Below are positions 3,047-51,101 of a stretch of 64,000 nt of DNA, piece after piece. Both the position numbers and the translations under genes were made by a program. This DNA is from a bacterium (lineage in GTDB: Bacteria > Margulisbacteria > Marinamargulisbacteria > JABGVJ01): NCBI GenBank assembly GCA_018646105.1, contig JABGVJ010000013.1, positions 1,517 through 65,516 on the forward strand, read 5' to 3'. Below the pieces are notes generated by a model. That model was not told the origin of the DNA, ran no database searches, and worked only from the letters and a program-made list of their open reading frames with translations. The first letter of the stretch is position 1, and each line of letters starts with the position of its first letter.

Positions 3047-5023
3047 ATGAATCACGAATATAATGCTACCCAAATAAAAGTTTTAGAAGGTCTTGAAGCT
3101 GTTCGTAAAAGACCTAGTATGTACATAGGCTCTACGGGCACACCTGGTTTAAACCATCTTGTTTACGAAGTAGTAGATAATAGTATTGATGAAGCCATGG
3201 CGGGCTTTTGTGATGTGGTAACAGTCACCATCGAACCTGATAATATCGTTACGGTAATTGATAACGGCCGTGGAATTCCAATTGATATACATAAAGATAA
3301 AGGACTACCCGCTGTTGAGGTGGTAATGACGACTTTACATGCTGGTGGAAAATTTGAAGGAAAAGGCTATAAAGTATCAGGCGGTTTGCACGGAGTAGGA
3401 GTTTCCGTAGTTAATGCCTTAGCGGAATGGTTAGTAGTAGAAGTTAAAAGAGATGGTAAAAAATATACGCAAAAATATTTTAGAGGGACTCCTAAAGAAA
3501 AATCTGGAAAACTAGAAGATTATAATGGTGATGATAGTGGAACGTTAATTCGCTTTAAGCCTGATCCGCAAATTTTTGAGTCTTGAGAATTCACTTCCGA
3601 AATAATCGATCATAGATTAAAAGAATTGGCCTTTTTAAATAAAGGTATAAAAATTATTTTTAAAGATACACGTTATGAAACCCCTACTGAAAAAGAATAT
3701 GTTTTTGAAGGCGGTCTTAAAGCTTATGTGGAAAATATTAATGAAAAAAAAGAACCTTTGTTTGCGCCTCCTATTTATCTAAAAAAAACCAGAGAACCTT
3801 ACGAAATAGAAGTCGCTATTCAATACGTTTCTGATTATTACGATGAACAGGTAATTTCTTTTGCTAATAATATTAGAACCAAAGAAGGTGGAACGCATAT
3901 CGCCGGCTTTAGAACTGCCTTAACTAGAGTAATCAACTCATTTGCTAAAAAATATGATTTGATAAAAGATAAAACCAAAAATTTTTCTGGCAATGATTTA
4001 AAAGAAGGTCTGACTGCTGTTATTAGTGTAAAACTACCACATCCTCAGTTTGAAGGGCAAACCAAAACCAAACTAGGAAACTCTGAGCTTAAAGGCATAG
4101 TGGATTCCATGGTAGACGAGAGCCTGACAGACGCAATTGAAACTACCCCTAAAATAGCAAAATTAATTATTAATAAAGCAGTTATTGCGCAAAGGGTGCG
4201 TGAAGCTACCAGACGAGCCCAAGATTTAGCGAGAAGAAAAAGCAGTCTGGAAAGCACAACGCTGCCAGGTAAGCTTGCGGACTGCTCTGATAAAGACCCT
4301 GCAAATTGCGAAGTATTTATTGTTGAGGGTGATTCTGCCGGAGGTTCCGCCAAGCAAGGAAGAGACAGAAACTTTCAGGCTATTTTACCTTTACGCGGTA
4401 AAATTTTAAATGTAGAGAAAGCAAGATTGGATAAAATTTTAGCAAATGAAGAAATTAAAGCTATGATTACAGCGCTTGGGCCAGAAGCTATTTCCGGTCT
4501 TTCTTCAGAGGATGACAATGAAGAAAACGGGACGGAAACTGAAGATGAAGATATAAAAAGAACTCTGAGTAAATTAAGATATCATAAAATCATCATCATG
4601 ACAGATGCTGATGTGGACGGATCTCATATTAGAACGCTGCTGTTAACTTTCTTTTTCAGACATGCAAAAGAAGTTATCTTGGCCGGTGGATTATATATTG
4701 CGCAACCACCTTTGTATTCTATAGGCCGCGGAAATGCAAAACAATACGCTATTGATGATGCGGCACTAGAGAAACTGTTAAAAGAAAAAGATATAACAAA
4801 AGAAGGGGCTCACATTCAACGCTACAAAGGTCTGGGAGAAATGAACCCTGATCAGCTTTGGGACACGACCATGGACCCAGAAAAAAGAAGTATGTTGCAA
4901 GTGACTATTGAAGACGCTGAAGAAGCGGACGATATTTTTACCACTTTAATGGGGAATAAAGTAGAGCCAAGGCGTGAATTTATTGAAAAATACGCCAAAA
5001 ACGTACGTTGGATAGATGTTTAA
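3047..5023 (+). CDS. gyrB: DNA gyrase subunit B, single reading frame interrupted by one in-frame TGA codon at 3584-3586 (possible pseudogene, sequencing error or recoding)
   Basis: ORFs 3047-3586 and 3626-5023 are in the same frame; concatenated translation aligns colinearly with GyrB (…[25 protein letters not shown]… vs B. subtilis …[27 protein letters not shown]…) with no indel; GHKL ATPase, TOPRIM (EGDSAGGS) and C-terminal domains all present. Confidence 0.85.
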
Positions 5024-5050: not shown

Positions 5051-7576
5051 ATGAGCGACGAGCAAAAACTATTTGAAGACACAAAAATAAAAAATATCAA
5101 CATTGACGCTGAAATGAAAAATTCCTTTTTGGAATATGCGATGTCCGTAATTGTTACCCGTGCTTTGCCAGATGTACGAGACGGATTAAAGCCAGTACAT
5201 AGAAGAATTATTTATGCTATGTATAATTCTGGCTTTACGGCAGGCAAACCTTATAAGAAATGTGCCAGAATTGTGGGGGATGTTTTAGGACGATACCATC
5301 CACATGGTGATACCGCCGTATACGACTCTCTTGTCAGAATGGCCCAAAATTTCTCACTACGTTATATGTTGATTGATGGACAGGGCAACTTTGGCTCTGT
5401 AGATGGAGACAGCGCTGCGGCTATGCGTTATACAGAAGCCAGAATGTCGAAAATCAGCATGGAGCTTGTCAAAGATCTTGAAAAAGAAACAGTAGAATGG
5501 GCACCAAATTTTGATGAATCATTAACAGAACCCTTGGTTTTACCCACCAGATTGCCGTCTTTGCTACTTAATGGATCTTCGGGAATTGCGGTAGGGATGG
5601 CTACCAATATACCTCCTCATAATTTAAATGAGTTATCGGACGGTGTTTGCGCCTTAATTGACAACCCAGAACTAGAGGGTCTTGAATTAATGAATTATAT
5701 TAAAGGCCCGGATTTCCCAACCGGCGGTATTATTTGCGGAGAAGAAGGTATTAGAAAAGCTTATCTCACAGGAAAAGGTTCTGTTGTAATAAGAAGTAAA
5801 ACAAGTATCGAAGAATCTAAAAAGAAAAATAAAAAAGCTATTATCGTGCATGAAATTCCTTATCAAGTTAATAAAGCTAATCTAATAATAAAAATAGCTG
5901 AACTTGTACAAGATAAAAAAATAACTGGAATTTCTGATTTAAGAGATGAGTCTGACAGAAAAGGTTTGCGAATCTATATTGAACTTAAAAAAGATGCGAT
6001 TCCAGATGTTATTTTAAATCAGCTGTTTAAGCATACTCAGCTGCAAGTCAGCTTTGGGGTAAACACAGTCGCACTTGTAAATGGCGTGCCTAAAACTTTA
6101 ACCTTAAAAAAAATTCTATCTTATTATATTTTACATAGAAAAGAAGTTGTAACAAAAAGAACGGAATATGACCTTAAAAATGCTAAGGCTAGACTCCATA
6201 TTTTAGAAGGTTTAAAAATCGCCCTTGATAACATTGACGAAATTATTGCTCTAATCAAAAAATCAACAAACACTATTGAAGCCAGATCAAATTTAATGAG
6301 TAAATTCAATTTATCTGAAAAGCAGTCTAACGCTATTTTGGATATGAAATTACAAAGATTAACTGGACTGGAAAGAGAAAAAATAGAATCCGAATATACG
6401 GAAATCATGAAAAAAATCGAAGATTTAGAAGATATTCTCGTTAATGAACCTAGAATTTACAATATTATTAAAGAAGAACAACTTGAGGTTAAGGATAAAT
6501 ATGGAGATAAAAGAAAAACAGAAATAAGCGGCGCTGTTGGGACAATGGATATAGAAGATTTAATTCCCAAACAACAAGTCGCGGTACTTATTTCCAAAAA
6601 AGGTTTTATAAAAAGATTACCTTTACATATTTTTAAAAGCCAATTAAGAGGTGGTCGCGGGGTCAGTGGTATGACCACTAGAGAAGAAGATATTATTGAT
6701 CAAATATTTGTGACTTCTTCTCATAACTTTTTATTGTGTTTTACTAATAAGGGTAAGGTTTTTAAAATCAAATGTTATCAAATTCCGGAAGCATCACGGC
6801 AAAGCAAGGGAGTTTCTATTTCACACTTTTTAAATTTTGATGAAGAAGAAAAAATTTCAACCATAATCCCTGTGAAAAATTTTGATACTGAAGACTATTT
6901 GTTAATGACTACGCAAAAAGGCATAGTTAAAAAAACAGCCGTAACTCTTTTTGCTTATTTAAAAAACAGTTCTATTATTGCGATTAATCTAGACGCTGGT
7001 GATAATCTTAAATGGGTAAAACGAACATCGGGGGATAAAAATGTCATCCTTTCTACTTCTGCGGGTATGGTAATCCGTTTTGAGGAAACGCAAATTCGAC
7101 CAATGGGTAGAAGTACGCGCGGTGTAAAAGGCATTAATATTAAGCCTGAAGACAATCTAACCAGTATGGATGTCATTGATCCAGAAGATAATACTCTTCA
7201 ATTATTGATCATCACCAAAAAAGGGTATGGTAAAAATTTAAAACTAGCGGAATTTAGATGTCAAAAACGAGGTGGTATTGGCGTAAAATGTTTGAAATTC
7301 AGAAAAACAATTAAAAATGATTTAGTAACCGATGCTTTGATCACCACTAAAGAAGATGAATTGATGATCGCTACTAAAGAAGGGGTTTTATGCCGACAAA
7401 AAATAGAGAATATCTCTACGCAAAGAAGACAATCTCAAGGCGTTAAAATTCAAAAACTAGATGCTAAAGACGAAGTAATAGCTATTGCACGTGTAATCAC
7501 AGAAAACGAGGCTATTAGTGAAGAAGAACCAGCCTCCACTGAAGTGGCTACGCAGAGCATGCCTTTGGTTGATTAA
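5051..7576 (+). CDS. gyrA: DNA gyrase subunit A
   Basis: 841 aa; [23 protein letters not shown], catalytic Tyr region RYTEARM, C-terminal beta-pinwheel repeats. Confidence 0.95.
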
Positions 7577-7587
7577 GCATATATGAC

Positions 7588-7821
7588 ATGAACAAAAATA
7601 TTGACCAGAAAAAGCCGATGGAGCTAGCTGAGTATTTTACATTAATAACCCAACTGGGTTTGGTTATGATCAGTCAAATATTTATTTTCTTTTTCCTAGG
7701 GCTTTTTCTGGTGAAAAAATTTCATTTGCCCAATATTTTTATTTTGTTATTTGTTTTAGTTGGTATTATTAGTGGGTTTTATTTTACATACGCCCTTATC
7801 CGTAAAGCTATTGATAACTAA
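7588..7821 (+). CDS. AtpZ/AtpR-like small 2-TM protein preceding ATP synthase operon
   Basis: 77 aa, two TM helices, position immediately upstream of atpI; resembles PF09527 putative F0F1-ATPase gene-1 proteins. Confidence 0.45.
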   Translation: MNKNIDQKKPMELAEYFTLITQLGLVMISQIFIFFFLGLFLVKKFHLPNIFILLFVLVGIISGFYFTYALIRKAIDN

Positions 7822-7865
7822 TTTAAAATTTGTTATAATATTTTTTTGATTTTTGATTTTTCTAT

Positions 7866-8279
7866 TTGCTTGTGAAAAAAATAACAATGAAAAAACCCAA
7901 AAATTTATTATTAATGTATAAACACTCGTTAAAAATCGTGGGGGGACTTTTAGTAATGTTTGGTTTAATTGCGCTTGTAACTCAAAAAACCTGGTTATTC
8001 TCTTCTTCGGTACTCGGTTTTGCTTTTGGTTTAGTAATTTTTAAAAATTGGATTACAAGTCAACAGAAAATTATGGAGTCTGCAAAAACCGGAACGTATT
8101 TTTTTTACTATGTTAGTCGCTTAATTCTTTTTACAATCCCCTTGATTACTGCTTTGTATTTTAAGTCTTTTTTTAATGTTTATATAACGTTGCTTTTTTT
8201 GCTTGCGTTCCAATGGTCTATGGTCTTAACAGAAGGCCTAAGAAACTTTGCCAAAGTAAAAAATAATCACTCGGAGTAA
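7866..8279 (+). CDS. atpI: ATP synthase protein I (AtpI)-like membrane protein
   Basis: 137 aa, multi-TM, located directly upstream of atpB as in canonical atpIBEFHAGDC operons. Confidence 0.5.
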   Translation: MLVKKITMKKPKNLLLMYKHSLKIVGGLLVMFGLIALVTQKTWLFSSSVLGFAFGLVIFKNWITSQQKIMESAKTGTYFFYYVSRLILFTIPLITALYFKSFFNVYITLLFLLAFQWSMVLTEGLRNFAKVKNNHSE

Positions 8280-8287
8280 AGAGAAAA

Positions 8288-9142
8288 ATGGAAGAATTAA
8301 CAAAAATTACTAGCGCTAGTATAAATTTATTTGGGCATATAATAACTTTTAACCCAAATGTATTTTATATGACTTGGTTGGTGATGGCGCTTATTATAAT
8401 TGTTCTTTTTTTGTGCACGCGCAAACTAACCGTTATCCCGCATAAATCACAAAATATTGTGGAAGTGGTCGTGGATTTTATTAAAAATATTACTTATTCT
8501 ACTTTAGGAAAAGAAGATGGCAAAAAATTCTTTCCTTTCATAATGACTTTATTTTTGTTTATCCTGATTTCAAACTGGATTGGCATTGTGCCTAATTTTA
8601 TACATTTTATAGGAGTCTTGTTTGCGGGCGCTCATAAACTACTCGGATCTGAAAATGTAAAAATCACTTATGAAGGGCTTACTTATATAAAGCTTTATCC
8701 AGATCCGAATGCTTGGTATGCCTTCTTTTTCAAGTTCCCAAAAATTGAAGAGCCTACTAAATTTTTGAGTACGGATTTGGCCGCAGCTCTTTTGGTTTTC
8801 TTAGTAGGACATGCTAGTGCAATCAAGGAAAAAGGGTTCTTGGCATATTTTAAAGGATATATGGATCCGGTGCCGTCTCATGCTCCTTGGATATTCTTTT
8901 TCTTTTTAAATCCATTTTTTTATTTAAATATTATAGGAGAACTAGGAAAAGTAGTGTCACATTCTGTACGACTTTTTGGGAATGTTTTTGGTGGCGGAAT
9001 TATTATTTTTATCGTCGCGACTCTTTTACGACATGTCTTATTGCCTGTTGGCCTTTATGCTTTTTTTGGTTTATTGGCTGGGTCTATTCAAGCATTTGTA
9101 TTTACAATGCTTGCGGTAACCTATATTTCCTTAGCAAAATAA
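8288..9142 (+). CDS. atpB: F0F1 ATP synthase subunit a
   Basis: 284 aa; conserved stator Arg region SHSVRLFGNVFGG. Confidence 0.9.
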   Translation: MEELTKITSASINLFGHIITFNPNVFYMTWLVMALIIIVLFLCTRKLTVIPHKSQNIVEVVVDFIKNITYSTLGKEDGKKFFPFIMTLFLFILISNWIGIVPNFIHFIGVLFAGAHKLLGSENVKITYEGLTYIKLYPDPNAWYAFFFKFPKIEEPTKFLSTDLAAALLVFLVGHASAIKEKGFLAYFKGYMDPVPSHAPWIFFFFLNPFFYLNIIGELGKVVSHSVRLFGNVFGGGIIIFIVATLLRHVLLPVGLYAFFGLLAGSIQAFVFTMLAVTYISLAK

Positions 9143-9155
9143 AAAGGAGCACGTT

Positions 9156-9626
9156 TTGAATTTTGTAACTTTGTGCGCGATTTTGGGAGCTGGTTTTAGT
9201 ATGGGCATTGGAGCTTTAGGGCCGGCCATGGGCGAAGGCATAATTGCGCTAAATGCAGTTAAAGCATTATCGAGACAACCTCGTGCCGCGGGCAAACTAA
9301 TGCGTATTATGTTGATAGGACAGGCCATAACCGAAACGCCGGCTATTTTTGCTTTGGTAATATCCTTACTGCTATTGTTTCAGGACAGCGGGGATTCATT
9401 TGTAAAAGGGGTGGCTTTTTTAATAGCGGGTATAGCGATGGGTATATCAACTCTAGGCGCTAGTTTTGGAGCCTCTTTCCCTGGAAAAACGGCTAGTACA
9501 GCAGTGGGCAGACAGCCCGAAAATATTGAGGCCTTGATGGTTAGCATGATAATTGGACAAGCTATAACTGGGACTACGGTTATTTACACGACCGTGGTAG
9601 CTATGATTTTAATTTTTGTTGTTTAA
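9156..9626 (+). CDS. atpE: ATP synthase c subunit, tandem-fused double hairpin (4 TM, 156 aa); second hairpin lacks the ion-binding Glu
   Basis: Two c-subunit repeats, each with the RQP loop. Hairpin 1 helix 2 is LIGQAITETPAIF (Glu present); hairpin 2 helix 4 is IIGQAITGTTVIY (Glu replaced by Gly). Confidence 0.8.
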   Translation: MNFVTLCAILGAGFSMGIGALGPAMGEGIIALNAVKALSRQPRAAGKLMRIMLIGQAITETPAIFALVISLLLLFQDSGDSFVKGVAFLIAGIAMGISTLGASFGASFPGKTASTAVGRQPENIEALMVSMIIGQAITGTTVIYTTVVAMILIFVV

Positions 9627-9708
9627 TCTGAAAGGAGCGTATAAATTAGTCATATTTAAAAACGTTAAAAAAATTAATAAATATTAAAAAAGAAAGGAAG
9701 TATGAAAA

Positions 9709-9960
9709 ATGGAAGGAATAAGTGGAGCAGATTTAATTAAAGTGGTTTCTTTAGCAGTGGCGGGAATTACAATGGCTATTGGTTCAATTGGGCCAAGTCT
9801 AGGAGAAGGTTTTGTGGCAGCAAAGGCATGCGAAGCGCTTGGTAAAAGACCGGATCAAGCTGAAGTTATCACTAGAACAATGCTAATTGGACAGGCAGTT
9901 ACAGAAACAACTGGTATTTACTGTTTAGTTATAGCTTTGATTCTAATTTTTGTTGTTTAA
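9709..9960 (+). CDS. atpE: ATP synthase c subunit (single hairpin, 83 aa) with E/E-T-T-Y putative Na+-binding motif
   Basis: GPSLGEGFVAAKA…LIGQAVTETTGIYCLVIALILIF; aligns to Ilyobacter/Fusobacterium c subunits with Glu at positions 32 and 65 equivalents, T66, T67, Y70. Confidence 0.9.
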   Translation: MEGISGADLIKVVSLAVAGITMAIGSIGPSLGEGFVAAKACEALGKRPDQAEVITRTMLIGQAVTETTGIYCLVIALILIFVV

Positions 9961-9981
9961 GAAAAAACGGATACTTTTTAT

Positions 9982-10005
9982 GTCCCCCAGGGCATGCCCT
10001 GGGAC
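9982..10005 (+). other. GC-rich perfect palindrome/hairpin between atpE and atpF (possible intra-operon attenuator/mRNA stability element)
   Basis: CCCAGGGCATGCCCTGGG (9986-10003), a 7-bp G+C stem in an AT-rich region with no following U-tract. Confidence 0.35.
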
Positions 10006-10064
10006 CGGCTTTCGTCGCTAAGTTGCGCGGATGGCTAAGTAAAATAAAATAAAGGAGAGAATAC

Positions 10065-10544
10065 GTGATTTCGCTTAATATATATGAAATCATAATGCAA
10101 ATTTTTAATTTCTTTTTGCTATTATGGGTTCTAAAGTTATTAGTATATAAGCCTCTGCTTGCTTTTTTAGATAAAAGGGCGGACTCCATTCAAAATAATA
10201 TTAAAGAAACAGAAGCTAATAAAAAAGAAGCTCAAGAAATTTTAACAGAACAAAAAGAAGTTTTTGTCCAAGCTCGCTTGGAAGCAAAAAAAATAAGAGA
10301 GCATGTTGAAGCAAACAGCCAGCAAGAACGAGAATTAACATTGGCTAAAACTGAAGATGCTGCTAAAAAAATAATCGAAAATGCCAAAAAAGAAATTGAT
10401 GCTAATTTAGTAGAGGCGCAAAAAGTATTGTTGAAAAAAGTAGGGGCGACTTCAATTTTATTGGCGGAAAAAATATTAAAGAAAAATCTAAATACGGAAG
10501 AAAATAAAAATATTATCAAAACTTATTTGGAAGAAGAAAAATGA
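10065..10544 (+). CDS. atpF: ATP synthase subunit b
   Basis: 159 aa, N-terminal TM then long charged coiled coil; operon position. Confidence 0.75.
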   Translation: MISLNIYEIIMQIFNFFLLLWVLKLLVYKPLLAFLDKRADSIQNNIKETEANKKEAQEILTEQKEVFVQARLEAKKIREHVEANSQQERELTLAKTEDAAKKIIENAKKEIDANLVEAQKVLLKKVGATSILLAEKILKKNLNTEENKNIIKTYLEEEK

Positions 10545-11071
10545 AAAAAATGAAATTAGCTAAACGGTACATGGCGGCTTTTCAAGCTACTTTAGCAGAC
10601 AAAGACCATCAAGCTGCTTTGGCTGAATTTATAGCTATTACAAACTTATTTTTAGAAAAAAAGATAATATTAAATTTTCTAAAAAGTCCGTTAGTTGATA
10701 TAGAAAAAAAGATATCATTTATGAAAAAAGTTTGTGTAAACTTAAAATATACAGATAAAATAAAAAAACTTTTAATTTTATTGTTAAGAAAAAAACGGCA
10801 AGAAATTTTTTTGGAACTAAAAATAATAGCTGAAAAAGAAATAGAAAAACTGCAAAATTTATGGCCTGCTAAAATTGTTTTGTCTGAAGATTGTACTGAA
10901 AACATTAAAAAAAATATTGTTAAAAAATTAGAAGAAAAAGAAAACAAAAAAATAAAACCTATGTTTATTATTAACCCTGTTATATTGGGTGGGTTTAAAG
11001 CTTATATTGAAAATAAAGTTTATGATGCCTCTATAAAAACAGTTTTAAATAAAATAAAAGCTAAACTTTAA
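10541..11071 (+). CDS. atpH: ATP synthase subunit delta
   Basis: 176 aa, position between b and alpha; start overlaps atpF stop (ATGA). Confidence 0.7.
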
Positions 11072-11085
11072 AAAAAGGAGATGAA

Positions 11086-12594
11086 ATGAAAATAAATCCA
11101 GAAGAAATAACGGCAATACTGCAAAAAGAAATTGAAGAATATAAAATGGCCTTGGACGTTTCTGAAACAGGAACTGTTTTACAAGTAGGAGATAATACGG
11201 CACGGGTCTTTGGTTTAGAAAACGTAATGTCTCAAGAATTAGTAAAATTTTCAGATGTTCTTTATGGTATTGCTATCAACTTAGAAGAAGATAGTGTGGG
11301 ATGTGTGGTTCTAGGCGATTGTACCGAAATAAAAGAAGGCGATACTGTAGAAAGAACCGGCCATATTTTATCTGTTCCGGTAGGAGAAAGTTTGTTGGGA
11401 CGCGTAGTAGATCCTTTAGGTAATCCGCTGGATAACGCCGGCGAAATTAAAAGCACAAAAAGAAAACCTATTGAGCGTATTGCGGCTGGCGTGTGTGACC
11501 GGCAACCTGTAAAAGAATCTTTGCAAACAGGCATTAAATGTGTGGATACAATGATTCCTATTGGACGCGGGCAAAGAGAATTAATTATCGGAGACCGGAA
11601 AACCGGAAAGACAGCGATTGCCATTGATACGATTATTAATCAAAAAGATACTGGCGTAATCTGTATTTATGTAGCGATCGGTCAGAAAAAGTCTTCAATT
11701 TCTAAAATAGTACATACCTTAAAAAATTATGGGGCTATGGATTATACCATAGTCGTAGCGGCCGCGGCATCAGACACTGCCGCGCTACAATATATCGCCC
11801 CTTATGCAGGATGTGCGATGGGCGAAGAATTTATGGATAATGGAAAAGCGGTTTTAATTGTATATGATGATTTATCTAAACATGCTACTGCTTATCGTCA
11901 ATTATCTTTGCTTTTACGAAGACCTCCGGGAAGAGAAGCTTTTCCAGGTGATGTTTTTTACCTACATTCCCGTCTTTTAGAAAGAGCCTTAAAATATTCT
12001 AAAGAAAAGGGCGGAGGCTCTTTAACTGCTTTGCCAATTATTGAGACGCAGGCAAGTGATGTTTCTGCTTATATTCCTACGAATGTTATCTCGATTACAG
12101 ATGGACAAATTTATTTAGAAGCTAATTTGTTTAATGCGGGCATTAAACCTGCTATCAATCCAGGTATTTCCGTTTCGCGTGTAGGTGGTAGTGCTCAAAT
12201 AAAAGCTACCAAACAAGTAGCGGGAAGTTTGCGTATAGATCTGGCTCAATATTGGGAAATCGAAGCTTTTTCTCAATTTGGTTCTGATCTAGATAAAGCT
12301 ACCTTGGCCCAATTAGCACGGGGGAAAAGATTGGTGGAAATTTTAAAGCAAGATCAATATGATCCTATTCCTATTTCTTTACAAATAGCAATTGTGTATG
12401 CAGCTGTAAAAGGATATTTAGACAGCATTAGCCTGAAAAATATAGCTGAGTTTGAAAAAGAGCTTTTTGCAGTTTTAAGAACACAAAAACGGGATTTGCT
12501 TGAAAAAATAGAAACAAAAAAAATCTTGGATGATGATATAAAAAAAGAATTAAATACCGTGATTCAAACCTGCAAAGAAACCTTGGTGAATTAA
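11086..12594 (+). CDS. atpA: ATP synthase subunit alpha
   Basis: 502 aa; Walker A GDRKTGKT; strong family similarity. Confidence 0.95.
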
Positions 12595-12612
12595 TAAAAG
12601 TAAAAGGTAATT

Positions 12613-13485
12613 ATGGCAAACATAAATAAAATTAAAAACAGAATTAGTTCTGTTAAAAAAATCAGAAAAATAACCCAAGCCATGAAAATGGTATCGGCGG
12701 CAAAGTTTAAAAAAGCAACTAATCTTGTGAATACGGCCCGCAATTATGATGATGCCCTTAAAGAAATTATCAATAGTTTTGCTTACAAATTAGAAGATGC
12801 TTCATTACCTATTTATTTTCAAAATAGTAGCCGACGAAAAATAGCGGTAATCGTAGTTGCGGCAGACCGAGGTTTATGCGGAGCTTTTAATAGTGCTCTC
12901 TTAAAGTCAACACAAGCTTTTTTAGAAAAACAAACACAAGCTGAGAAAATTGATTTGTACTTATTTGGAAAAAGAGCGGAACTTTTTTTTAAAAACAAAA
13001 AATGGCCTATTAAAAAAACTTTTTCGGTTGAACTAGGTCATTTAAAAACAGAGGATATCTTAGAAAAACTAGCTGAATTGCCCGAAAACTTTAGAAACGA
13101 AGAGATAGATACTATCCTTCTTTTTGCAAATAAATTAAACGGGGCTTTATCTAATGAAATGACGCCTGCTCAAATTTTGCCAATTAGTATGCCTCAAAAA
13201 AATATAGAAGATGATAAAATTTTCACAGATTTTATTTATGAAGTTGATCAAGAGAAAACTTTAAAAAATCTAGCTTTAAAATGCTTTTGCTTTTTCATTT
13301 ACCATGCGTTAATTGAAAGTAGAGCAACAGAAGAAAAATTAAGAATGGTGGCCATGGATGCCGCTACCAAAAATGCTAATGATTTTATTAATAGCTTAAC
13401 GATAATTTATAATCGAACCAGGCAAGCTATAATAACCAAAGAAATTTCAGAAATAGTAGCTGGGGCTGAAGCTTTAGCTGATTAA
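12613..13485 (+). CDS. atpG: ATP synthase subunit gamma
   Basis: 290 aa; N-terminus IKNRISSVKKIRKITQAMKMVSAAKF and C-terminus RQAIITKEISEIVAGAEAL are typical of gamma. Confidence 0.9.
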   Translation: MANINKIKNRISSVKKIRKITQAMKMVSAAKFKKATNLVNTARNYDDALKEIINSFAYKLEDASLPIYFQNSSRRKIAVIVVAADRGLCGAFNSALLKSTQAFLEKQTQAEKIDLYLFGKRAELFFKNKKWPIKKTFSVELGHLKTEDILEKLAELPENFRNEEIDTILLFANKLNGALSNEMTPAQILPISMPQKNIEDDKIFTDFIYEVDQEKTLKNLALKCFCFFIYHALIESRATEEKLRMVAMDAATKNANDFINSLTIIYNRTRQAIITKEISEIVAGAEALAD

Positions 13486-13489
13486 ATAA

Positions 13490-15171
<1,682 letters not shown>

Positions 15172-43440: not shown

Positions 43441-44213
43441 TTCAAAGTAAAGATAATCAGAAATTAAAATTAGCTAAACTTCTTTTTTCCAGCAAAAAAA
43501 ACATTAAAAAAACAAATTTTTTTATAATTGATAATATCAAATTAATTAAAGAAATACACTTAAAATCACCCGAACAACTTGCCTACATATTAGTTTGCGA
43601 AAAAACAAATTTAGACTCTTTGGTTTTTAACAATCCTACTAAAATACATTTTATTGAAAAAAACATATTCAAAAGCTCATTTACAGACAAAACAAAAGAA
43701 TCAGTATTGGCGGTTTGTAAAGTAAAAAAGCCTGATTACTTAGCGATATTACCAAAATTAAAAAACATTTTGATCCTGGATCAAATATCAATTCCTCAAA
43801 ATTTTGGAGCCATCATAAGAACAGCCGCTGCCTTCAATATTGATGCCGTTTTTTATACCAAAGGAACCACTTTTTATTATAACCCTCAAACAATACGCGC
43901 CGCTGCTGGTTATATTTTTGAAATTCCTATATTAGAATTAAATAAGGACACTTTAATCTTTTTACAAGAAAAAAGCTTTGTTTTTTACGTTTTAGATATA
44001 GCTGCAAAAGAATATTTACAAGATGTAAATTTTAGTAAAAAGAACGCTTTTGTTTTAGGGTCAGAAGGAAATGGCATTATTTCAAATGATTTAAAAAATG
44101 ATTTGAAGACTAAAAAAATAAAAATTCCTATGAAAAACAAGGTTGAGTCCTTAAACGTGGCTGTAACAGCAGGAATCCTGCTTTACCATCTTTTTTTTAA
44201 AAAAATAATTTAA
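43434..44213 (+). CDS. TrmH/SpoU-family RNA 2'-O-methyltransferase
   Basis: SPOUT motifs NFGAIIRTAAAF, VLGSEGNG, ESLNVAVTAGILLY. Confidence 0.8.
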   Translation: MLIQSKDNQKLKLAKLLFSSKKNIKKTNFFIIDNIKLIKEIHLKSPEQLAYILVCEKTNLDSLVFNNPTKIHFIEKNIFKSSFTDKTKESVLAVCKVKKPDYLAILPKLKNILILDQISIPQNFGAIIRTAAAFNIDAVFYTKGTTFYYNPQTIRAAAGYIFEIPILELNKDTLIFLQEKSFVFYVLDIAAKEYLQDVNFSKKNAFVLGSEGNGIISNDLKNDLKTKKIKIPMKNKVESLNVAVTAGILLYHLFFKKII

Positions 44214-45031
44214 TCTAAAACGCTAAGAATTCTTTCAAATTCAGCCTTGGATTTATAATAAATTTCTATTCTTCCTCTTGTTTCTTTACCTGAAATTTTA
44301 ATTTTTGTAGAAAACTTACTGGCTAAGTTTTTTACAAATTTAGTAAAAATCTTATCTACTGCTTTTTTTTGCTTTTTTTGGGTTACTAAAGCCTCTGTCT
44401 CTCTAACATTTAAATTATTTACGGCTATTTTTTTTAAGATCTTATATATAAGATCTTCGCTCTCAAGAGAAAGAAGAGATCGCGCATGCCCCTCTGTTAA
44501 ACTACCGTTAATAATTTCTCTCTTTATGGATTCTGGGAGATTAAGCATTCTTAAAGTATTAGTAATCGCCGAGCGGCTTTTTCCAAAAATACCAGCTAAA
44601 TCGTTATGGGACAAATTAAATTCTTGAATTAGTTTTTCATATCCATAAGCAATTTCTATACAATTTAAATCTTCTCTTTGTAAATTTTCAATTAATGCCA
44701 ATTGAATAGAATCTCTATCGGAAACATTTTTAATAATAGTAGGAATAGTATCTTTACCCGCTAAAAGACTCGCCTTATACCTTCTTTCTCCAGCTATTAA
44801 CTCATAACCATCTTCTTTTTTTCTAACCAAAATGGGCTGGCAGATACCATATGTTTTAATAGATTCTGCTAAAGACTGAATAGCTTTTTCATCAAAATAT
44901 TGCCTGGGCTGATATTTATTTGGGCATATTTCCTTTATTGGTATATTAGTAATAGTTTTTCCGGATGATAAAAAATTTCGAGGAATTAAGGCCTCTAATC
45001 CTTTTCCTAATTTTGGTTTATTGTTTGACAC
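44210..45031 (-). CDS. parB: chromosome partitioning protein ParB
   Basis: ParB box LIAGERRYKAS, HTH, 273 aa; coupled with parA. Confidence 0.9.
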   Translation of the reverse strand: MSNNKPKLGKGLEALIPRNFLSSGKTITNIPIKEICPNKYQPRQYFDEKAIQSLAESIKTYGICQPILVRKKEDGYELIAGERRYKASLLAGKDTIPTIIKNVSDRDSIQLALIENLQREDLNCIEIAYGYEKLIQEFNLSHNDLAGIFGKSRSAITNTLRMLNLPESIKREIINGSLTEGHARSLLSLESEDLIYKILKKIAVNNLNVRETEALVTQKKQKKAVDKIFTKFVKNLASKFSTKIKISGKETRGRIEIYYKSKAEFERILSVLD

Positions 45032-45791
45032 GCTGTAATACCTCCTTTGTTAAATTAAAATAAGCCGTAGCTCCTGAACTATTTGGATTATACAAAGAAA
45101 TAGGCAGCCCATGACTTGGTGCCTCTGTTAATTTGATATTTCTAGGTATAATTGTTTCAAAGATTAAATCACCAAAAAATTCTTTAGCATTTTTGATAAT
45201 ATGCTTGTTCAAGACTGTTCTTTTATCAAACATCGTTAATAAAATCCCTAATAATTGTAAGTTTTCATTTAAATTTTCTTGTATAAGCTGGACTGTTTTT
45301 AATAAATTAGCAATTCCCTCTAAAGCAAAATATTCGCACTGCAACGGTATTAAGGTATGAGTTGAAGCCACTAGCGCATTCACAGTCAACAGACCTATGG
45401 ATGGCGGGCAATCAATAATAATAATGTCATAATATTTTTTGATTTTTTCAAGGCTATTTATTAAGCATGTTTCACGTGAAACAACGTCTACTAATTCTAT
45501 CTCGGCCCCTGAAAGATCTTTAGAGGAAGGAATTAGGTTTAAATGGTTGAAAACAGTTGGATAGAGACATTCTGTTATTGGGGTTTGTCTAATTAAAACA
45601 TCGTAAATTGTCTTTTTTATTTTTTTTTTGTCTAAGCCGACACCTGAAGTAGCGTTGGCCTGTGGATCTAAATCAATTAAAAGTGTTTTGTGCTTTTTTT
45701 CACTTAAATATGAAGCTAGATTTATAGAAGTGGTGGTTTTTCCCACCCCTCCTTTTTGGTTAACAATTGAGATAATAATTGGGTTATTCAT
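45018..45791 (-). CDS. parA: chromosome partitioning ATPase ParA
   Basis: Deviant Walker A KGGVGKTTTSINLA; start moved to internal Met (MNNPIIISIVNQKGG), N-terminal 41 codons of ORF-track unlikely. Confidence 0.9.
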   Translation of the reverse strand: MNNPIIISIVNQKGGVGKTTTSINLASYLSEKKHKTLLIDLDPQANATSGVGLDKKKIKKTIYDVLIRQTPITECLYPTVFNHLNLIPSSKDLSGAEIELVDVVSRETCLINSLEKIKKYYDIIIIDCPPSIGLLTVNALVASTHTLIPLQCEYFALEGIANLLKTVQLIQENLNENLQLLGILLTMFDKRTVLNKHIIKNAKEFFGDLIFETIIPRNIKLTEAPSHGLPISLYNPNSSGATAYFNLTKEVLQRVKQ

Positions 45792-45998
45792 AGCTGTAAA
45801 AGTATAGCATAGTTTTAAATTTACTAAAATAATTAGTCCGTTGTTATTTTTAAATTTTTGAGGTTCAACCCTCTCTTTTTTCGCACATGTTACCACAAAA
45901 GCAGATTCGCACATGCTCTTATTTAATCTTTTTTATAGAATTTTAGGGAAAGCTTTTATATAATACAAATTATATGCTTTTATAAAAAGGAGAATTAA

Positions 45999-47558
45999 AT
46001 GACAGCTACTATAAAAATTCATGAAAAAGATTTAGATAAAACTGAGGTTTATAGAAAGTTAATTTTATTAACTAAAAAGCGCGTAGATTTAAAAAAAATA
46101 TTAACTAAAAAGCGAATAGAAAAATGTATTATAAAAACTCCTTTATTGGGTTTTTCTTTTGCTGCATCTTTAATTAACGACGAGATTTTAAAGCTTTTGC
46201 AAAAATTAGCAGATGAACAAATGGTTGTAGAAAAATATCAACAAATTCTAAACGGATCTATAATGAATGTTGGTGAAAAGAGAGCTGTTTTACACCATAA
46301 AACTAGATCAAAAAAACGCGGGTTTTATGGTAAAGAACAAAAAAAAATAGCTGCTTTTACAAAAAAAATCCATACGGGGACAATAAAAGGCGCTACAGAT
46401 AAAAAATTTGAGACCGTGGTGCAAATAGGTATCGGTGGGTCGGATTTGGGCCCCAGGGCGTTATGTCTCGCTCTAGAGAAAAGCTGTCAGCATGACGCGC
46501 TTTTGAAAGCGAGGTTCATTGCCAATGTTGATCCGGATGATGCTCACCAAGTTTTAAATTCTATTGATTTTGAAAAAACGCTTTTTATTGTAGTTTCTAA
46601 AAGCGGAACTACTCAGGAAACGTTGACTAACTTAAATATCATACGTAAAAAATTCTTAGAAATTGGTTATAAAAAAGAAAATTTAAAAAAACATTTTATT
46701 GCGGTTACGGGAAAAGGAAGTCCTTTGGATAATCCTCAAAAATATTTAGCTTCCTTTTATATTGATGATTGTATAGGCGGGAGATATTCTTCAACCAGTG
46801 CAGTAGGAGGAGCTATTTTAAGCTTAGCTTTTGGGGCTCCTGTTTTTGAGAAATTATTAAAAGGGGCTTTTGTTTTAGATGAAAATGCTAACAAACGAAA
46901 TATAATGGAAAACATGTCTTTAATGGCCGCCTTAATCGGTGTTTGGGAGCGCTCTTTTTTAGGATTGCCTTCAAAGGCAATTATTCCTTACAGCGAGGCC
47001 TTAAGCCGGTTTCCTGCTCATTTACAGCAACTAGACTGTGAAAGCAATGGTAAAAGTGTAAATATTAATTTCAAAAAAATTAATTATCAAACAGGGCCTA
47101 TGATTTTTGGAGAACCCGGTACTAATGGGCAGCATTCTTTTTTTCAAAAATTACATCAGGGTTCTGATGTTATTCCAATACAATTTATTGGTTTTAAACA
47201 CGCCCAAATTAATAAAGATAAGATATATATGCGCTCTACTAGTCAAAAAAAACTTATTTCTAATCTGGTAGCTCAAATAGCGGCTTTTGCTCTGGGTAAA
47301 TATGATGAAAATGAGAATAAAAATTTTTCAGGGAACCGCCCTAGTAGTTTGATTTTTGCAGATAAACTAACTCCTTATACATTAGGTGCTCTTTTAGCTT
47401 TTTATGAAAACATAGTAATGTTTCAGTCTTTTATCTGGAACATAAATGCTTTTGACCAAGAAGGTGTGCAGTTGGGTAAAATTTTAACAAAAAAAATTCT
47501 AGCCACGGAACATTGTGATGATGAAATACTAAATTCTTTAATGGCTATTTTTCAATGA
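45999..47558 (+). CDS. pgi: glucose-6-phosphate isomerase
   Basis: 519 aa; IGIGGSDLGP and SKSGTTQET PGI signatures. Confidence 0.9.
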   Translation: MTATIKIHEKDLDKTEVYRKLILLTKKRVDLKKILTKKRIEKCIIKTPLLGFSFAASLINDEILKLLQKLADEQMVVEKYQQILNGSIMNVGEKRAVLHHKTRSKKRGFYGKEQKKIAAFTKKIHTGTIKGATDKKFETVVQIGIGGSDLGPRALCLALEKSCQHDALLKARFIANVDPDDAHQVLNSIDFEKTLFIVVSKSGTTQETLTNLNIIRKKFLEIGYKKENLKKHFIAVTGKGSPLDNPQKYLASFYIDDCIGGRYSSTSAVGGAILSLAFGAPVFEKLLKGAFVLDENANKRNIMENMSLMAALIGVWERSFLGLPSKAIIPYSEALSRFPAHLQQLDCESNGKSVNINFKKINYQTGPMIFGEPGTNGQHSFFQKLHQGSDVIPIQFIGFKHAQINKDKIYMRSTSQKKLISNLVAQIAAFALGKYDENENKNFSGNRPSSLIFADKLTPYTLGALLAFYENIVMFQSFIWNINAFDQEGVQLGKILTKKILATEHCDDEILNSLMAIFQ

Positions 47559-47982
47559 TAATTGTAATAGGGCCGTCATTGATAATCGTTACCTTCATGT
47601 CGGCGCCAAATACACCTGTTTTAACTTTAGTATGAAAGCCGGTTAGCTGTTGAACCATATAATCGTAAAGCGGTTCAGCTATAGAGGGCGGCGCGGCCTG
47701 AACAAAACTAGGTCGACAACCTTTTTGACAATTGCCGTATAAAGTAAATTGAGAGATTAGTAAAAGCTCACCCTCTATTTGTTTTAAACTTAAATTCATT
47801 TTGCTGTTTTCATCGCTAAAAATTCTGAGGTTTAATAATTTTTGCAAGCAATAATCTGTAGTTGTATGGGTATCATTATGTGTAATACCTACTAAAACTA
47901 ATAACCCTTTGTTTATTTGGGCATGTATTTTATGGTCGATTGCTACCGATGCGTGCTTTACTCTTTGGACAACTAATCTCAT
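47545..47982 (-). CDS. dtd: D-aminoacyl-tRNA deacylase
   Basis: MRLVVQRV…SQFTLYG…GVFGADM…NDGP motifs; 145 aa. Confidence 0.9.
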   Translation of the reverse strand: MRLVVQRVKHASVAIDHKIHAQINKGLLVLVGITHNDTHTTTDYCLQKLLNLRIFSDENSKMNLSLKQIEGELLLISQFTLYGNCQKGCRPSFVQAAPPSIAEPLYDYMVQQLTGFHTKVKTGVFGADMKVTIINDGPITIIIEK

Positions 47983-48152
47983 CTAAATAATCCTCTTCTG
48001 TTTTTATATTAAAGTGACAGGCTTCTTGTTTATTGGCTTGTTACTAAGCCGTAAGACACTGTATTTTTTTATTATATAATAATTTACAAAAGTTTGTTTT
48101 GTATAGTATTATTAGCCAACATTGAAATCAATGTTTAGTATAAACCTAATAA

Positions 48153-48351
48153 TTATCCACAATTATTAGATCTTATTGTTGATAAACTTGTTGACAACCT
48201 TGTTAATAACTTTTTTTCGTGAGTAATTACTATTTAGTTAATATTTTTTGTGGGTTAGATTTCCTTATAATATATTAAACTTTACCAAAAAAAAGAGCGC
48301 TCGGTTAATTTTATTTTGTTTTTATTTTTTTTGTGGATAATTTGTGGATAA
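48153..48351. promoter_or_regulatory. DnaA-box cluster upstream of dnaA (putative oriC half / dnaA autoregulatory region)
   Basis: Perfect TTATCCACA at 48153-48161; two perfect TGTGGATAA at 48332-48340 and 48343-48351; three tandem 12-bp degenerate boxes TTGTTGATAAAC / TTGTTGACAACC / TTGTTAATAAC at 48176-48210. Confidence 0.6.
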
Positions 48352-48377
48352 TATAATAAAACAGGTGGTTTTTTACG

Positions 48378-49703
48378 ATGAATACGGTTTGGAATTCAAT
48401 TGTTACGGTTTTAAAAGAAAAGCTTTCGGATCCTAATTTTCAAATATTTTATAGTTCTACAAAACCTATTAATTATTTAGAAAACATTCTGACTTTAAAG
48501 GTAGACAGTCAGTTTTCTAAAGCATGGGTTATGGAAAAATGTGATCCATTAATTAAGGTTTTTTTTAAAGACACTGAATATGAAAATATAGTGCTAAATA
48601 TTATAGTAGAAGAACCACAAGAAGAAGAGCCCGCGGCTTTACCTCTTTTTAAGCGGCCCGTTTCTAATGTTTCTAATAGACTAAACCCTAAGTTTTCTTT
48701 TGAAAATTTTATAGCTGGTAATAATAATAGATTTGCACACGCCGCGGCCATGGCTGTAGCTAAAAGTCCAGCTAAAGCTTATAACCCTTTGTTTATCTAT
48801 GGTCCGGTTGGTATAGGTAAAACCCACCTTTTACACGCTATTTGTTGGTATTTAATAAAAATTAATCCTGGTATAAAAGTAAAAATCGTTACTTCTGAAA
48901 AGTTTACGAACGAACTGATTAATTCCATAAAAGATAGAAATGTGAAAAATTTCAAAAATAATTATAGAAATATAGATGTATTGCTAGTTGATGATATACA
49001 ATTTTTAGCGGGAAAAGAAACGACTCAAGAAGAGTTCTTTCATACATTTAATGAATTACATGGAAACAATAAACAAATCGTTATGACGTCGGATAGACCG
49101 CCTAAAGATATTCCCACATTACAAGATAGGTTACGAACCAGATTTACCTGGGGGTTAATTGCGGATATACAACCACCGGAACTAGAAACACGTATTGCTA
49201 TTTTAAAAAAAATCACAGAGATAAATAATATTATTATTTCTGATGAAATTTTACACTTTGTAGCAACTCAAATCCCTAGTAATGTAAGGGAACTAGAAGG
49301 CGCCTTAACGCGTATAGTGGCTTATTCATCTTTATTGAACACCGAGGCGACTCTTTCTATAGCAAGTAATGTAATACGAGATATAGTAACAATAAAACAA
49401 GAAAGACCATTAACGATTAGTTTAATAAAAAGAAAAGCTTGTGATTATTTTAATATAGACTTTGATAGATTATCTTCAAAAAACAGAACAAGGGATTTGG
49501 CATATGCGAGACAAATAGCTATGTACTTAGCAAGAGAACTAACTAATGTTTCTTTACCTAAAATTGGTGAGAATTTTGGAAACCGTGACCATACAACAGT
49601 AATGCATGCTTGTGATAAAATAAAAAATTTAATAGATACTGACAGTAATACAAAAAATATTATTAATATATTAATTTCATCTATTAAAAATGCGGGAGCT
49701 TAA
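48378..49703 (+). CDS. dnaA: chromosomal replication initiator protein DnaA
   Basis: 441 aa; AAA+ Walker A GPVGIGKTHLL, LLVDDIQFL, C-terminal DNA-binding domain. Confidence 0.95.
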   Translation: MNTVWNSIVTVLKEKLSDPNFQIFYSSTKPINYLENILTLKVDSQFSKAWVMEKCDPLIKVFFKDTEYENIVLNIIVEEPQEEEPAALPLFKRPVSNVSNRLNPKFSFENFIAGNNNRFAHAAAMAVAKSPAKAYNPLFIYGPVGIGKTHLLHAICWYLIKINPGIKVKIVTSEKFTNELINSIKDRNVKNFKNNYRNIDVLLVDDIQFLAGKETTQEEFFHTFNELHGNNKQIVMTSDRPPKDIPTLQDRLRTRFTWGLIADIQPPELETRIAILKKITEINNIIISDEILHFVATQIPSNVRELEGALTRIVAYSSLLNTEATLSIASNVIRDIVTIKQERPLTISLIKRKACDYFNIDFDRLSSKNRTRDLAYARQIAMYLARELTNVSLPKIGENFGNRDHTTVMHACDKIKNLIDTDSNTKNIINILISSIKNAGA

Positions 49704-49732
49704 TTAGCTTCTACGCTGTTTAGATATTAAGG

Positions 49733-49950
49733 TTGTTGATTAGTTGTTGATTAGTTGTTAATAAATTGTTGATAAATTGTTAAAATAATCATATAAAAAG
49801 AAAGTGGTTTGAGTTATCCTCAAATTATAAAATCTAAAAAAGGGGTTTTTAAGTTTAAAAGAGAGGTTATCCACATATTAACAGCTCTTACTAATACAAT
49901 ATATAATATAATTATTAATTAATAGTAGTTATATATAATAAATAAAGGAG
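49733..49950. promoter_or_regulatory. DnaA-box array plus AT-rich unwinding-like region between dnaA and dnaN (putative oriC)
   Basis: Five head-to-tail 11-bp repeats TTGTTGATTAG x2, TTGTTAATAAA, TTGTTGATAAA, TTGTTAAAATA (49733-49787); TTATCCTCA (49814-49822); perfect TTATCCACA (49867-49875); then >70 bp of nearly pure A/T (49880-49950). Confidence 0.6.
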
Positions 49951-49958
49951 GTATTTAA

Positions 49959-51101
49959 ATGAAATTTAAGTGTTCTAGTTCTTTGTTACAAAAAGGGGTT
50001 AATATCGTTGAGAAAGCGGTTTCTCAGAAAACCAATTTACCTATAATGGAAAATATTTTTATGGAGTTAAAAGATCATAAATTGAAAATGATGGGTAATG
50101 ATTTGGAATTAGGTATCGAGTATTTTATTTCTATCGAAAACATAGAACAGGAAGGGGCTGTTTTATTAAAAGCCAAGACAATTAGTAGTATTGTTTCTAA
50201 GTTAGATAACCAGCTACTTAGTTTACAAGTTGATGAAAATAAAAAAATTATTATTAATGCTGATAAAGTGGATTTTAATATTCTTGGTACTGATGTGTCT
50301 GAATATCCTGTTTTCCCGCAGGTTGAAGAGGGCCTTTCTTTTGAGCTTGAAGTTCGTGATTTAAAAGAATTACTTAAATACACTATTTTTGCGGTTTCTT
50401 TTGATGAAACTAAGGAATTTCTAAATGGTATTTTAATAAAAAATGAAGAGGATTATTTGTATTTTGTTTCTACAGATGGGTATCGACTTTCTTTGAAGAG
50501 AAAAAAAATAACTAAACCAGCTACTGATTTTTCCGCAATAGTTCCTTTTAGAGTCATGAATGAATTGTATAAAATTTTACAAAATATAGATCCTGATGCG
50601 AAAATTAAACTTAATATTTCAACTAATCAGGTGTCGTTTATGATGGATGGTTTTTTATTGGTATCTAGGGTTATCCAGGGAACTTTTCCTGATTATAAAC
50701 AGGTTTTACCTAAAGAATTTGATAATGTCATTACGGTCGGTAGAAGAAATTTTATTCAAGCGGCAGAAAGAGCGTCTATTATAGCTTCCGTTTCTAATAA
50801 TGTGGTTAAATTGATTTTTAGCGATGTTTTAGAAATTAAGGCGAACGCTCCTAAAATGGGTGGTTTTAATGAAGAAATTAATATTACCAATCAAAACATA
50901 AAGGGTATAGATAATTTAAAGGTAGCTTTTAATGTTAGACTTCTTTTAGATGTAATGAAAACTCTAGAAGCTGATGATGTTTTGATCGAAGTTAATGATG
51001 AGTTAAAACCATGTGTAATTAGATCTGTTGCTGATGAAGACTATACTTATATTATTATGCCTATAAGAACAAGTGACTATAAGAATGAAGATGATTCTTA
51101 A
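49959..51101 (+). CDS. dnaN: DNA polymerase III beta sliding clamp
   Basis: 380 aa, three-domain clamp organisation, position after dnaA. Confidence 0.9.
   Translation: MKFKCSSSLLQKGVNIVEKAVSQKTNLPIMENIFMELKDHKLKMMGNDLELGIEYFISIENIEQEGAVLLKAKTISSIVSKLDNQLLSLQVDENKKIIINADKVDFNILGTDVSEYPVFPQVEEGLSFELEVRDLKELLKYTIFAVSFDETKEFLNGILIKNEEDYLYFVSTDGYRLSLKRKKITKPATDFSAIVPFRVMNELYKILQNIDPDAKIKLNISTNQVSFMMDGFLLVSRVIQGTFPDYKQVLPKEFDNVITVGRRNFIQAAERASIIASVSNNVVKLIFSDVLEIKANAPKMGGFNEEINITNQNIKGIDNLKVAFNVRLLLDVMKTLEADDVLIEVNDELKPCVIRSVADEDYTYIIMPIRTSDYKNEDDS

Follow-up and report, generated by a model that had tools for sequence, protein, structure and literature searches.

Hybrid F-type rotors in which some ion sites are dead have hitherto been regarded as a specialty of a few acetogens at the thermodynamic limit. 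In Acetobacterium woodii and Clostridium aceticum, a fused c subunit (c1) has two hairpins, of which the first retains the ion-binding carboxylate and the second has lost it (PMC7911925). The A. woodii ring contains c1 and ordinary subunits as c1(1):c2/3(9), a 9:1 mix (PMC9171764), and the C. aceticum enzyme with c1 and c2 is Na+ dependent (PMC7911925). The c subunit of Fusobacterium nucleatum has a two-carboxylate Na+ site made of E32, E65, S/T66, T67, and Y70 and is Na+ specific (PMC3692424). Covalent multiples of the c hairpin are found in V/A-type enzymes, such as Enterococcus hirae NtpK (2BL2), the Methanocaldococcus jannaschii triple, and a Methanopyrus kandleri protein with 13 hairpins (PMC2359735). 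The F/V hybrid rotor itself is already known. Here we describe an atp operon with a fused double-hairpin c gene (c1) followed by a single-hairpin one (c2), in a stretch of 64,000 nucleotides (the window) from a Margulisbacteria contig, JABGVJ010000013.1. We consider it likely from its sequence that the product of this operon is a (most likely Na+-coupled) F1Fo ATP synthase in which the c-ring is probably a mixture of c1 and c2 and c1 is the two-hairpin member of a larger family.

An earlier note on this DNA had placed two atpE genes between atpB and atpF, and open reading frame (ORF) calls together with Pfam searches bore this out. The two genes and the hairpins of c1 are as follows.

9156..9626, + strand: c1 (atpE1), fused double-hairpin c subunit of 156 amino acids; TTG start, TAA stop, two PF00137 stretches
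9156..9389, + strand: c1 hairpin 1 (amino acids 1-78), live; E27 and E60 present
9390..9623, + strand: c1 hairpin 2 (amino acids 79-156), dead; A106 and G139 in the carboxylate positions
9709..9960, + strand: c2 (atpE2), single-hairpin c subunit of 83 amino acids, ATG start; PF00137; full two-carboxylate Na+ motif

Pfam gave two PF00137 matches for c1 (E = 4.5e-26) and one for c2 (E = 3.9e-16), and the c1 translation has two RQP loops, at amino acids 40-42 and 119-121. Hairpin 1 of c1 has the motifs G-E27-G and I-T-E60-T-P-A-I-F (codons of E27 at 9234-9236, E60 at 9333-9335, P62 at 9339-9341, and F65 at 9348-9350). It keeps the two-carboxylate pair, which the earlier note overlooked, yet its outer helix has T61, P62, and F65 where c2 has T, T, and Y. 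The corresponding motifs of hairpin 2 are G-A106-S and I-T-G139-T-T-V-I-Y, with A106 (9471-9473) in place of E32 and G139 (9570-9572, codon GGG) in place of E65. The note was therefore right that this hairpin lacks both the rotor carboxylate and the helix-3 polar residue. Its outer helix retains T140, T141, and Y144 (9585-9587). In c2, the motifs are G-E33-G (E33 at 9805-9807) and V-T-E66-T-T-G-I-Y (E66 at 9904-9906), and the Na+ ligand set is complete: E33, V64 (backbone), E66, T67, T68, and Y71. This agrees with the note's account of c2 as a normal 83-residue c subunit with Glu at both positions plus T-T...Y, and it matches the E32/E65/T66/T67/Y70 signature of F. nucleatum (PMC3692424). Glu occupies the equivalents of both 32 and 65 in c2 and in c1 hairpin 1, but neither in c1 hairpin 2. 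The S/T66-T67-Y70 set is complete in c2 and in helix 4 of c1 and partial in helix 2 of c1.

We compared c1 with known structures. Its closest sequence match in the Protein Data Bank was A. woodii c1 (4BEM_J; E = 1.1e-18, residues 28-177, both hairpins aligned). The next matches, F. nucleatum c (second best for hairpin 1) and A. woodii c2, both covered hairpin 1 only. An AlphaFold2 model of c1 made with 38 homologs had four long helices and a predicted local distance difference test score (pLDDT) of 95.2; a single-sequence run had a pLDDT of 58. Foldseek ranked 4BEM_J first for this model (template modeling [TM] score of 0.91, root mean square deviation of 1.7 Å) and 2BL2 second, among V-type c/K subunits. 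Together with the Pfam matches, these results support the description of c1 as a tandem c hairpin with four transmembrane helices and two RQP loops, and not an unrelated four-helix membrane protein. They also fit the layout that the note had likened to A. woodii, a fused c1 with one lost site next to a normal c subunit, with the carboxylate present in hairpin 1 but lost from hairpin 2.

A matrix of pairwise hairpin identities addressed descent. Each hairpin of A. woodii c1 is 73% identical to A. woodii c2. The window hairpins are 31 to 40% identical to A. woodii c1, 41% to A. woodii c2, and 38 to 45% to F. nucleatum c, and so c1 is no closer to the A. woodii fused subunit than to the others. 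Because the A. woodii hairpins match their own c2 at 73% and those of the window only at 31 to 40%, the two fused genes are products of separate duplications, and their resemblance is convergent. The rest of the operon points to Margulisbacteria: AtpA is 70 to 77% and AtpD 75 to 79% identical to those of Marinamargulisbacteria/Margulisiibacteriota loci, versus approximately 55 to 69% for other loci. Lateral transfer of the A. woodii gene was ruled out by the identity matrix and this operon affinity, which decide for independent duplication, the other of the two origins raised in the note. The note's suggestion that the A. woodii architecture extends to another lineage is thus correct for the layout, which is shared, but not for descent, which is separate.

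The closest relatives of c1 have more hairpins. Among its best 120 homologs, 118 have 227 to 259 amino acids and join three hairpins in a single chain; the remaining two have 156 amino acids. In the Marinamargulisbacteria triple, hairpin 1 has E/VTETAAIF, hairpin 2 has A/VTQTSTIF and is dead, and hairpin 3 has D/ITETTDIY. A separate 83-residue single c (E/ISETTGIY), orthologous to window c2, follows. To count hairpins, a hidden Markov model of one hairpin was run over fetched genome and metagenome loci. A multi-hairpin c was found in 33 of 61 genome loci, 27 with three hairpins (Marinamargulisbacteria, another Margulisiibacteriota metagenome-assembled genome [MAG], Cloacimonadota, and a Planctomycetota-labelled MAG) and 6 with four (Coatesbacteria, Thermodesulfobacteriota, and other MAGs). 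In these 33 loci, a single c follows the fused one wherever the contig continues. The complete metagenome loci (39) divided into 33 with a 3+1 layout and 6 with 4+1. A multi-hairpin c gene immediately followed by a two-carboxylate single c is a recurrent layout in F-type operons. The window has the same arrangement, with a live first hairpin with Phe70, a last hairpin with Tyr70, and a single c next. The scans of genome and metagenome contigs, collections that lack the window's own species and in which the best match was 57%, found no complete 2+1 layout besides the window, and those that looked like doubles proved to be triples truncated by the end of a contig. Only P0036, a 156-residue protein from an unrelated metagenome, shares two hairpins in the fused gene, among more than 70 loci and the best 120 homologs. 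On this evidence, the 2+1 arrangement of the window appears to be a rare, reduced member of a large family and not a one-off acquisition of the A. woodii design by transfer.

We extended the search exhaustively with HMMER over 1.84 billion representatives, which are not necessarily all F-type (the operon contexts inspected are), and examined the best 150 matches. These had 2, 3, 4, 5, 7, or 12 to 15 hairpins per protein. The first hairpin was live in 117 of 135 fused proteins. At position 70, Phe prevailed in non-last hairpins (242 of 319) and Tyr in last ones (116 of 135). The dead residue was usually Gln (142 of 179) and rarely Gly (7 of 179), the residue in c1. Four-hairpin fused c genes are found at L027, L029-L032, and L059 (about 5950-6960 in most), and the representatives P0121-P0269 include proteins with 5, 7, and 12 to 15 hairpins, up to 1139 amino acids. 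In some fused c subunits, a single site is live among three or four hairpins. The triple of L001 (6001-6708) and of other Marinamargulisbacteria carries Asp32 and an extra Asp69 (ITETTDIY) in its hairpin 3, whose site is completed by the hairpin-2 helix with Phe70. To our knowledge, this Asp32/Asp69/Phe70 chemistry is in no characterized c-ring. In P0116, a triple of 231 amino acids on a 1.68-Mb contig, the last helix is swapped for the unrelated TAHGAINSNNDYWASDYRNNGYLFVGSG before the sequence returns to ILIFVV, as if that assembly contained a double frameshift. Database entries label the triple and quadruple genes only "ATP synthase F0 subunit C". We found no description of three- or four-hairpin F-type c subunits in the searchable literature, although earlier publications may mention them.

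How the double relates to the triples was examined segment by segment. Hairpin 1 of c1 is 63% identical to hairpin 1 of the Marinamargulisbacteria triple, and c2 is 64% identical to the single c after that triple over the aligned hairpin (65% by tblastn). The closest relatives of each segment are as follows.

c1 hairpin 1, N-terminal helix/loop/C-terminal helix: closest to triple hairpin 1 (hairpin 3 ties in the N-terminal helix), 51/59/76%
c2, N-terminal helix/loop/C-terminal helix: closest to the relatives' single c, 52/70/77%
c1 hairpin 2, N-terminal helix and loop: closest to triple hairpin 2, 47/44%
c1 hairpin 2, C-terminal helix: closest to triple hairpin 3 and the single c, 69/66%
c1 hairpin 2, C-terminal helix, against triple hairpin 2: 35%

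Hairpin 2 of c1 is thus chimeric, and its switch point is the MIIGQA motif that is common to all hairpins. Compared with the triple, the window is therefore short by precisely one repeat unit, made up of helices 4 and 5. Each hairpin of the triple has its counterpart across Cloacimonadota, L026, and Marinamargulisbacteria (48 to 53% on the diagonal versus 35 to 45% for other fused-hairpin pairs). Such orthology across phyla indicates that the triple is older than the window's nearest clade, and deletion is therefore the more parsimonious change. A neighbor-joining tree of AtpA plus AtpD (943 columns, without bootstrap values) placed the window as sister to the triple-bearing clade. We somewhat favor, from these segment comparisons, a scenario in which a live-dead-live triple lost one hairpin (helices 4 and 5) in frame to give c1, with the junction in MIIGQA. 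The alternative is that an ancestral double gained a unit by insertion or fusion, giving the triple. If there was a deletion, helix 4 of the window would descend from a live helix (ITETT.IY), and Gly139 (GGG, one transition from GAG) would represent a second, independent removal of a carboxylate.

What c1 might do in a ring can be predicted from published site geometry. In F. nucleatum and Ilyobacter tartaricus, Glu32 and Glu65 come from one subunit and the Val63 carbonyl oxygen, Ser66, and Tyr70 from the adjacent one (PMC3692424). In E. hirae NtpK, helix 3 contributes Gln110 and helix 4 Glu139, and helix 2 completes the site with Leu61, Thr64, and Gln65; Mulkidjanian et al. treat NtpK L61/T64/Q65, Q110, and E139 as equivalent to I. 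tartaricus V63B/S66B, Q32A, and E65A (PMC2359735). From this correspondence, the completing helix (63, 66, 67, and 70) belongs to the preceding hairpin. E27 and E60 of c1 would then form a normal site together with the T-T-Y helix of the subunit before c1, and the last helix of c1 (T140, T141, and Y144) would complete the site of the following subunit. Therefore, we infer that both outer interfaces of c1 are complete Na+ sites. The sole site wholly within c1 would be dead, with A106 and G139 facing T61, P62, and F65 and ligands lost on both sides. A c1 copy would occupy two hairpin positions in the ring and carry one ion. With one dead internal site per c1, each copy would cut the number of Na+ ions per turn, and so per ATP, by one, as in the A. 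woodii ring. We infer from sequence the co-assembly of c1 and c2 in one ring, as well as the copy number, the Na+ specificity, and the physiological benefit. The start codons, TTG for c1 and ATG for c2, hint that c1 may be a minor ring component. A TTG start is also implied in P0036 and in JGI variants. The Na+ pump Nqr has been predicted in Marinamargulisbacteria, the closest named relatives (PMC6349859), which fits a sodium cycle.

Other explanations must be weighed against this one. The 156-residue ORF could be an artefact in which two normal c genes were merged or a triple was truncated, and triples cut at metagenome contig ends do look like doubles. However, an identical 156-residue c1 is present in four NCBI MAG records and in 17 contigs of up to 87 kb, and window c2, AtpA, AtpD, and DnaA also have exact matches. 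Also, c1 is located mid-window and has its own ribosome binding site (AAGGAG at 9144-9149, the TTG start being seven bases downstream) and a TAA stop. Finally, P0036 is an ortholog of the same length, 70% identical to c1, with the same ITGTTVIY and the same synteny, gyrA-atpZ-atpI-atpB-c1(156)-c2(83)-atpF. These observations rule out an assembly or frameshift artefact, including the frameshift merger that the note had allowed for, and we regard the chance of one as negligible. Alternatively, c1 could be without a function in the rotor, as a decaying duplicate or as an assembly helper absent from the mature ring. Its TTG start is weak, which points to low expression. However, the frame is intact, both RQP loops and the glycine-rich packing helices are retained, the AlphaFold2 model is a confident four-helix one, and homologs are conserved over several phyla. 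Between c1 and P0036, hairpin 1 is 76% identical and the dead hairpin 68%, which argues that the dead hairpin is maintained under selection and is not decaying. A c1 without a role in the rotor is therefore very improbable.

If c1 does work in a rotor, the two subunits might still not mix. Full-site rings of c2 only and V-type-like half-site rings of c1 only could form under different conditions, for example, for synthesis versus Na+ extrusion. The different start codons and the 82-nt spacer between the genes are compatible with this, half-site homo-oligomeric rings of double-hairpin subunits are known in V/A-type enzymes (PMC9171764), and one of these, 2BL2, is the second fold match of c1. 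A c1-only ring is also geometrically possible, because E27 and E60 would meet the T-T-Y helix of the previous c1. However, A. woodii, the only characterized F-type case, mixes its subunits 9:1, and the pairing of a fused with a single c is kept in more than 70 loci, within one operon and with no second set of Fo genes. We think separate rings, and the division of labor that they might serve, quite unlikely. A different possibility is that the enzyme is H+ coupled, its polar residues being inherited and not making it Na+ selective under physiological conditions. An incomplete set of the Na+ ligands does persist in some H+-binding c subunits (PMC2359735), and the window encodes no Na+ pump. Even so, c2 has the complete set that is Na+ specific in F. 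nucleatum (PMC3692424), every single c partner in the multi-hairpin family keeps the Na+ set, the habitat is a marine one, and the closest named relatives have a predicted Nqr. H+ coupling therefore seems unlikely.

Some points count against a mixed, Na+-coupled ring with a c1 derived from a triple. No Na+ pump gene was found within the window, and the direction in which a site is completed rests on published residue numbering. Phe70 is found in non-terminal hairpins irrespective of the next hairpin (129 live versus 113 dead). We had considered Phe70/Pro67 of c1 hairpin 1 to be a specific co-degeneration with the dead site, but this idea is weakened by the presence of Phe70 in non-terminal hairpins generally. 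We therefore read F65 as a family trait and not as proof of local co-degeneration. As for origin, the AtpA plus AtpD tree alone leaves the polarity of double versus triple undecided, and the change may have run from triple to double or, less probably, from double to triple.

What appears to be new at this locus is the independent origin, the two-carboxylate live sites, the combination of Gly and Ala at the dead site, and membership, as a reduced form, in a multi-hairpin family. A broader proposal can be made only tentatively, and we put it at somewhat under even. It is that c1 is a reduced member of an apparently undescribed, phylum-spanning class of F-type enzymes, with a fused c of two to five hairpins and one to four dead sites beside a normal two-carboxylate c, which arose independently of A. 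woodii and in which c1 was shaped by deletion and then a Glu-to-Gly change. If this is true, selection would actively keep the internal site of c1 dead, and with more than one fused copy in each ring, the Na+ ATP synthases of marine Margulisbacteria and relatives would have ion/ATP ratios under those of any characterized F-type enzyme. Apart from this proposal, the window and its relatives show that a fused c with dead sites evolved independently in diderm, largely marine, uncultured lineages. The graded series of 2, 3, and 4 or more hairpins per polypeptide offers a natural set of "gear ratios" for the question of how c-ring ion/ATP stoichiometry is set. It bears on whether site loss is compatible with ATP synthesis, the problem of the F-to-V transition (PMC9171764). 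Metabolic models of Marinamargulisbacteria, which now assume a standard ATPase (PMC6349859), are also affected.

The atp operon is a canonical F-type one on the + strand, at 7588-15171, by ORF calls and Pfam. Its other features are as follows.

7588..7821, + strand: atpZ-like small membrane protein (PF09527 ATPase_gene1, E = 2.4e-10), heading the operon
7866..8279, + strand: atpI-like membrane protein of 137 amino acids (ORF; without a Pfam match)
8288..9142, + strand: atpB, Fo subunit a (PF00119, E = 2e-45)
9986..10003, + strand: GC-rich perfect palindrome CCCAGGGCATGCCCTGGG, between c2 and atpF
10065-10544, + strand: atpF, the first of the genes 3' of c2
10065..15171, + strand: atpF, atpH, atpA, atpG, atpD, and atpC in canonical F-type order (ORFs and Pfam, including PF00430 and PF00213)

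The contig of P0036 and L001 have the atpZ-like gene in the same place, and their atpI-like slot holds a gene of 129 to 135 amino acids, likewise without a Pfam match. Subunit a (8288-9142) has 284 amino acids, compared with 217 positions in the Pfam profile, with an insertion of approximately 40 amino acids around HKLLGSENVKITYEGLTYIKLYPDPNAWYAFFFKFPKIEEPTKF. Subunit a also has 284 amino acids in the P0036 contig and in L001. The spacer between c2 and atpF is 104 nt. The palindrome in it occurs once in the window, has no T-run, and folds with a z-score of only -1.65 relative to shuffled sequence; the genome has 34% GC. Speculatively, it may form an mRNA stem-loop, a processing or stability element that decouples expression of the c genes from that of the downstream genes. 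A scan for promoters and terminators around the c genes gave no signal over the shuffled background.

Elsewhere in the window, gyrB (3047-5023) is broken by a single in-frame TGA at 3584-3586, and its HATPase_c and DNA_gyraseB/Toprim parts share a frame. This led us to consider TGA recoding, which was rejected because TGA terminates 11 of 58 ORFs. The gyrB TGA could be a sequencing error, could mark a split gene or pseudogene, or could be read through. A hexokinase of the PF00349/PF03727 type, which is typical of eukaryotes and unusual for bacteria, adjoins dnaE (52624-53988, - strand), and a homolog of TMEM175-type K+ channels (PF06736) is at 591-1223. The genes parB, parA, pgi, dnaA (48378-49703), and dnaN (49959-51101) lie at 44210-51101. 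Therefore, the window spans the region of the chromosomal replication origin. The GC minimum, approximately 28%, is at 48 to 52 kb of the window.

Among known systems, A. woodii and C. aceticum have the most similar arrangement: a four-helix c1 with a live hairpin 1 and a dead hairpin 2, then a single c with a Na+ motif. The window shares with A. woodii the operon order I-B-E1-E2-F-H-A-G-D-C in an F-type context, as well as Phe at position 70 of hairpin 1 and Tyr at that of hairpin 2. However, the dead residue is Gln (Q162) in A. woodii and Gly (G139) in the window, helix-3 position 32 stays Gln in A. woodii and is Ala in the window, and the live sites are Gln/Glu in A. woodii and Glu/Glu, the two-carboxylate form, in the window. 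The hosts differ as well, an acetogenic Firmicute versus a marine Margulisbacteria relative, and the nearest relatives of the window have three hairpins. Window c2 resembles the subunit of the F. nucleatum c11 ring (3ZK1) in E32, E65, S/T66, T67, and Y70, but that ring is built of single-hairpin subunits with all 11 sites live, whereas the window has a fused subunit that removes a site. The V/A-type proteolipids are also covalent multiples of the c hairpin with some sites lost, and their fold is similar (TM scores of 0.78 to 0.82). However, they belong to V/A operons and to another sequence clade (approximately 22% identity), whereas the window operon is F-type. In NtpK, the live site is within the subunit and the carboxylate is lost from hairpin 1; window c1 is the reverse. 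The triple and quadruple c subunits of Marinamargulisbacteria, Cloacimonadota, and Coatesbacteria occupy the same operon position as c1, and their hairpin 1 is orthologous to that of c1 (63%). Marinamargulisbacteria and the other relatives share with c1 a G-A-(G/S)-x-P-G helix and a QPEN loop in the dead hairpin and LILIFVV at the end of the last helix. Their fused genes have either four hairpins or three (live, dead with Gln, and live with D32/E65), whereas c1 has two and a Gly at its dead site.

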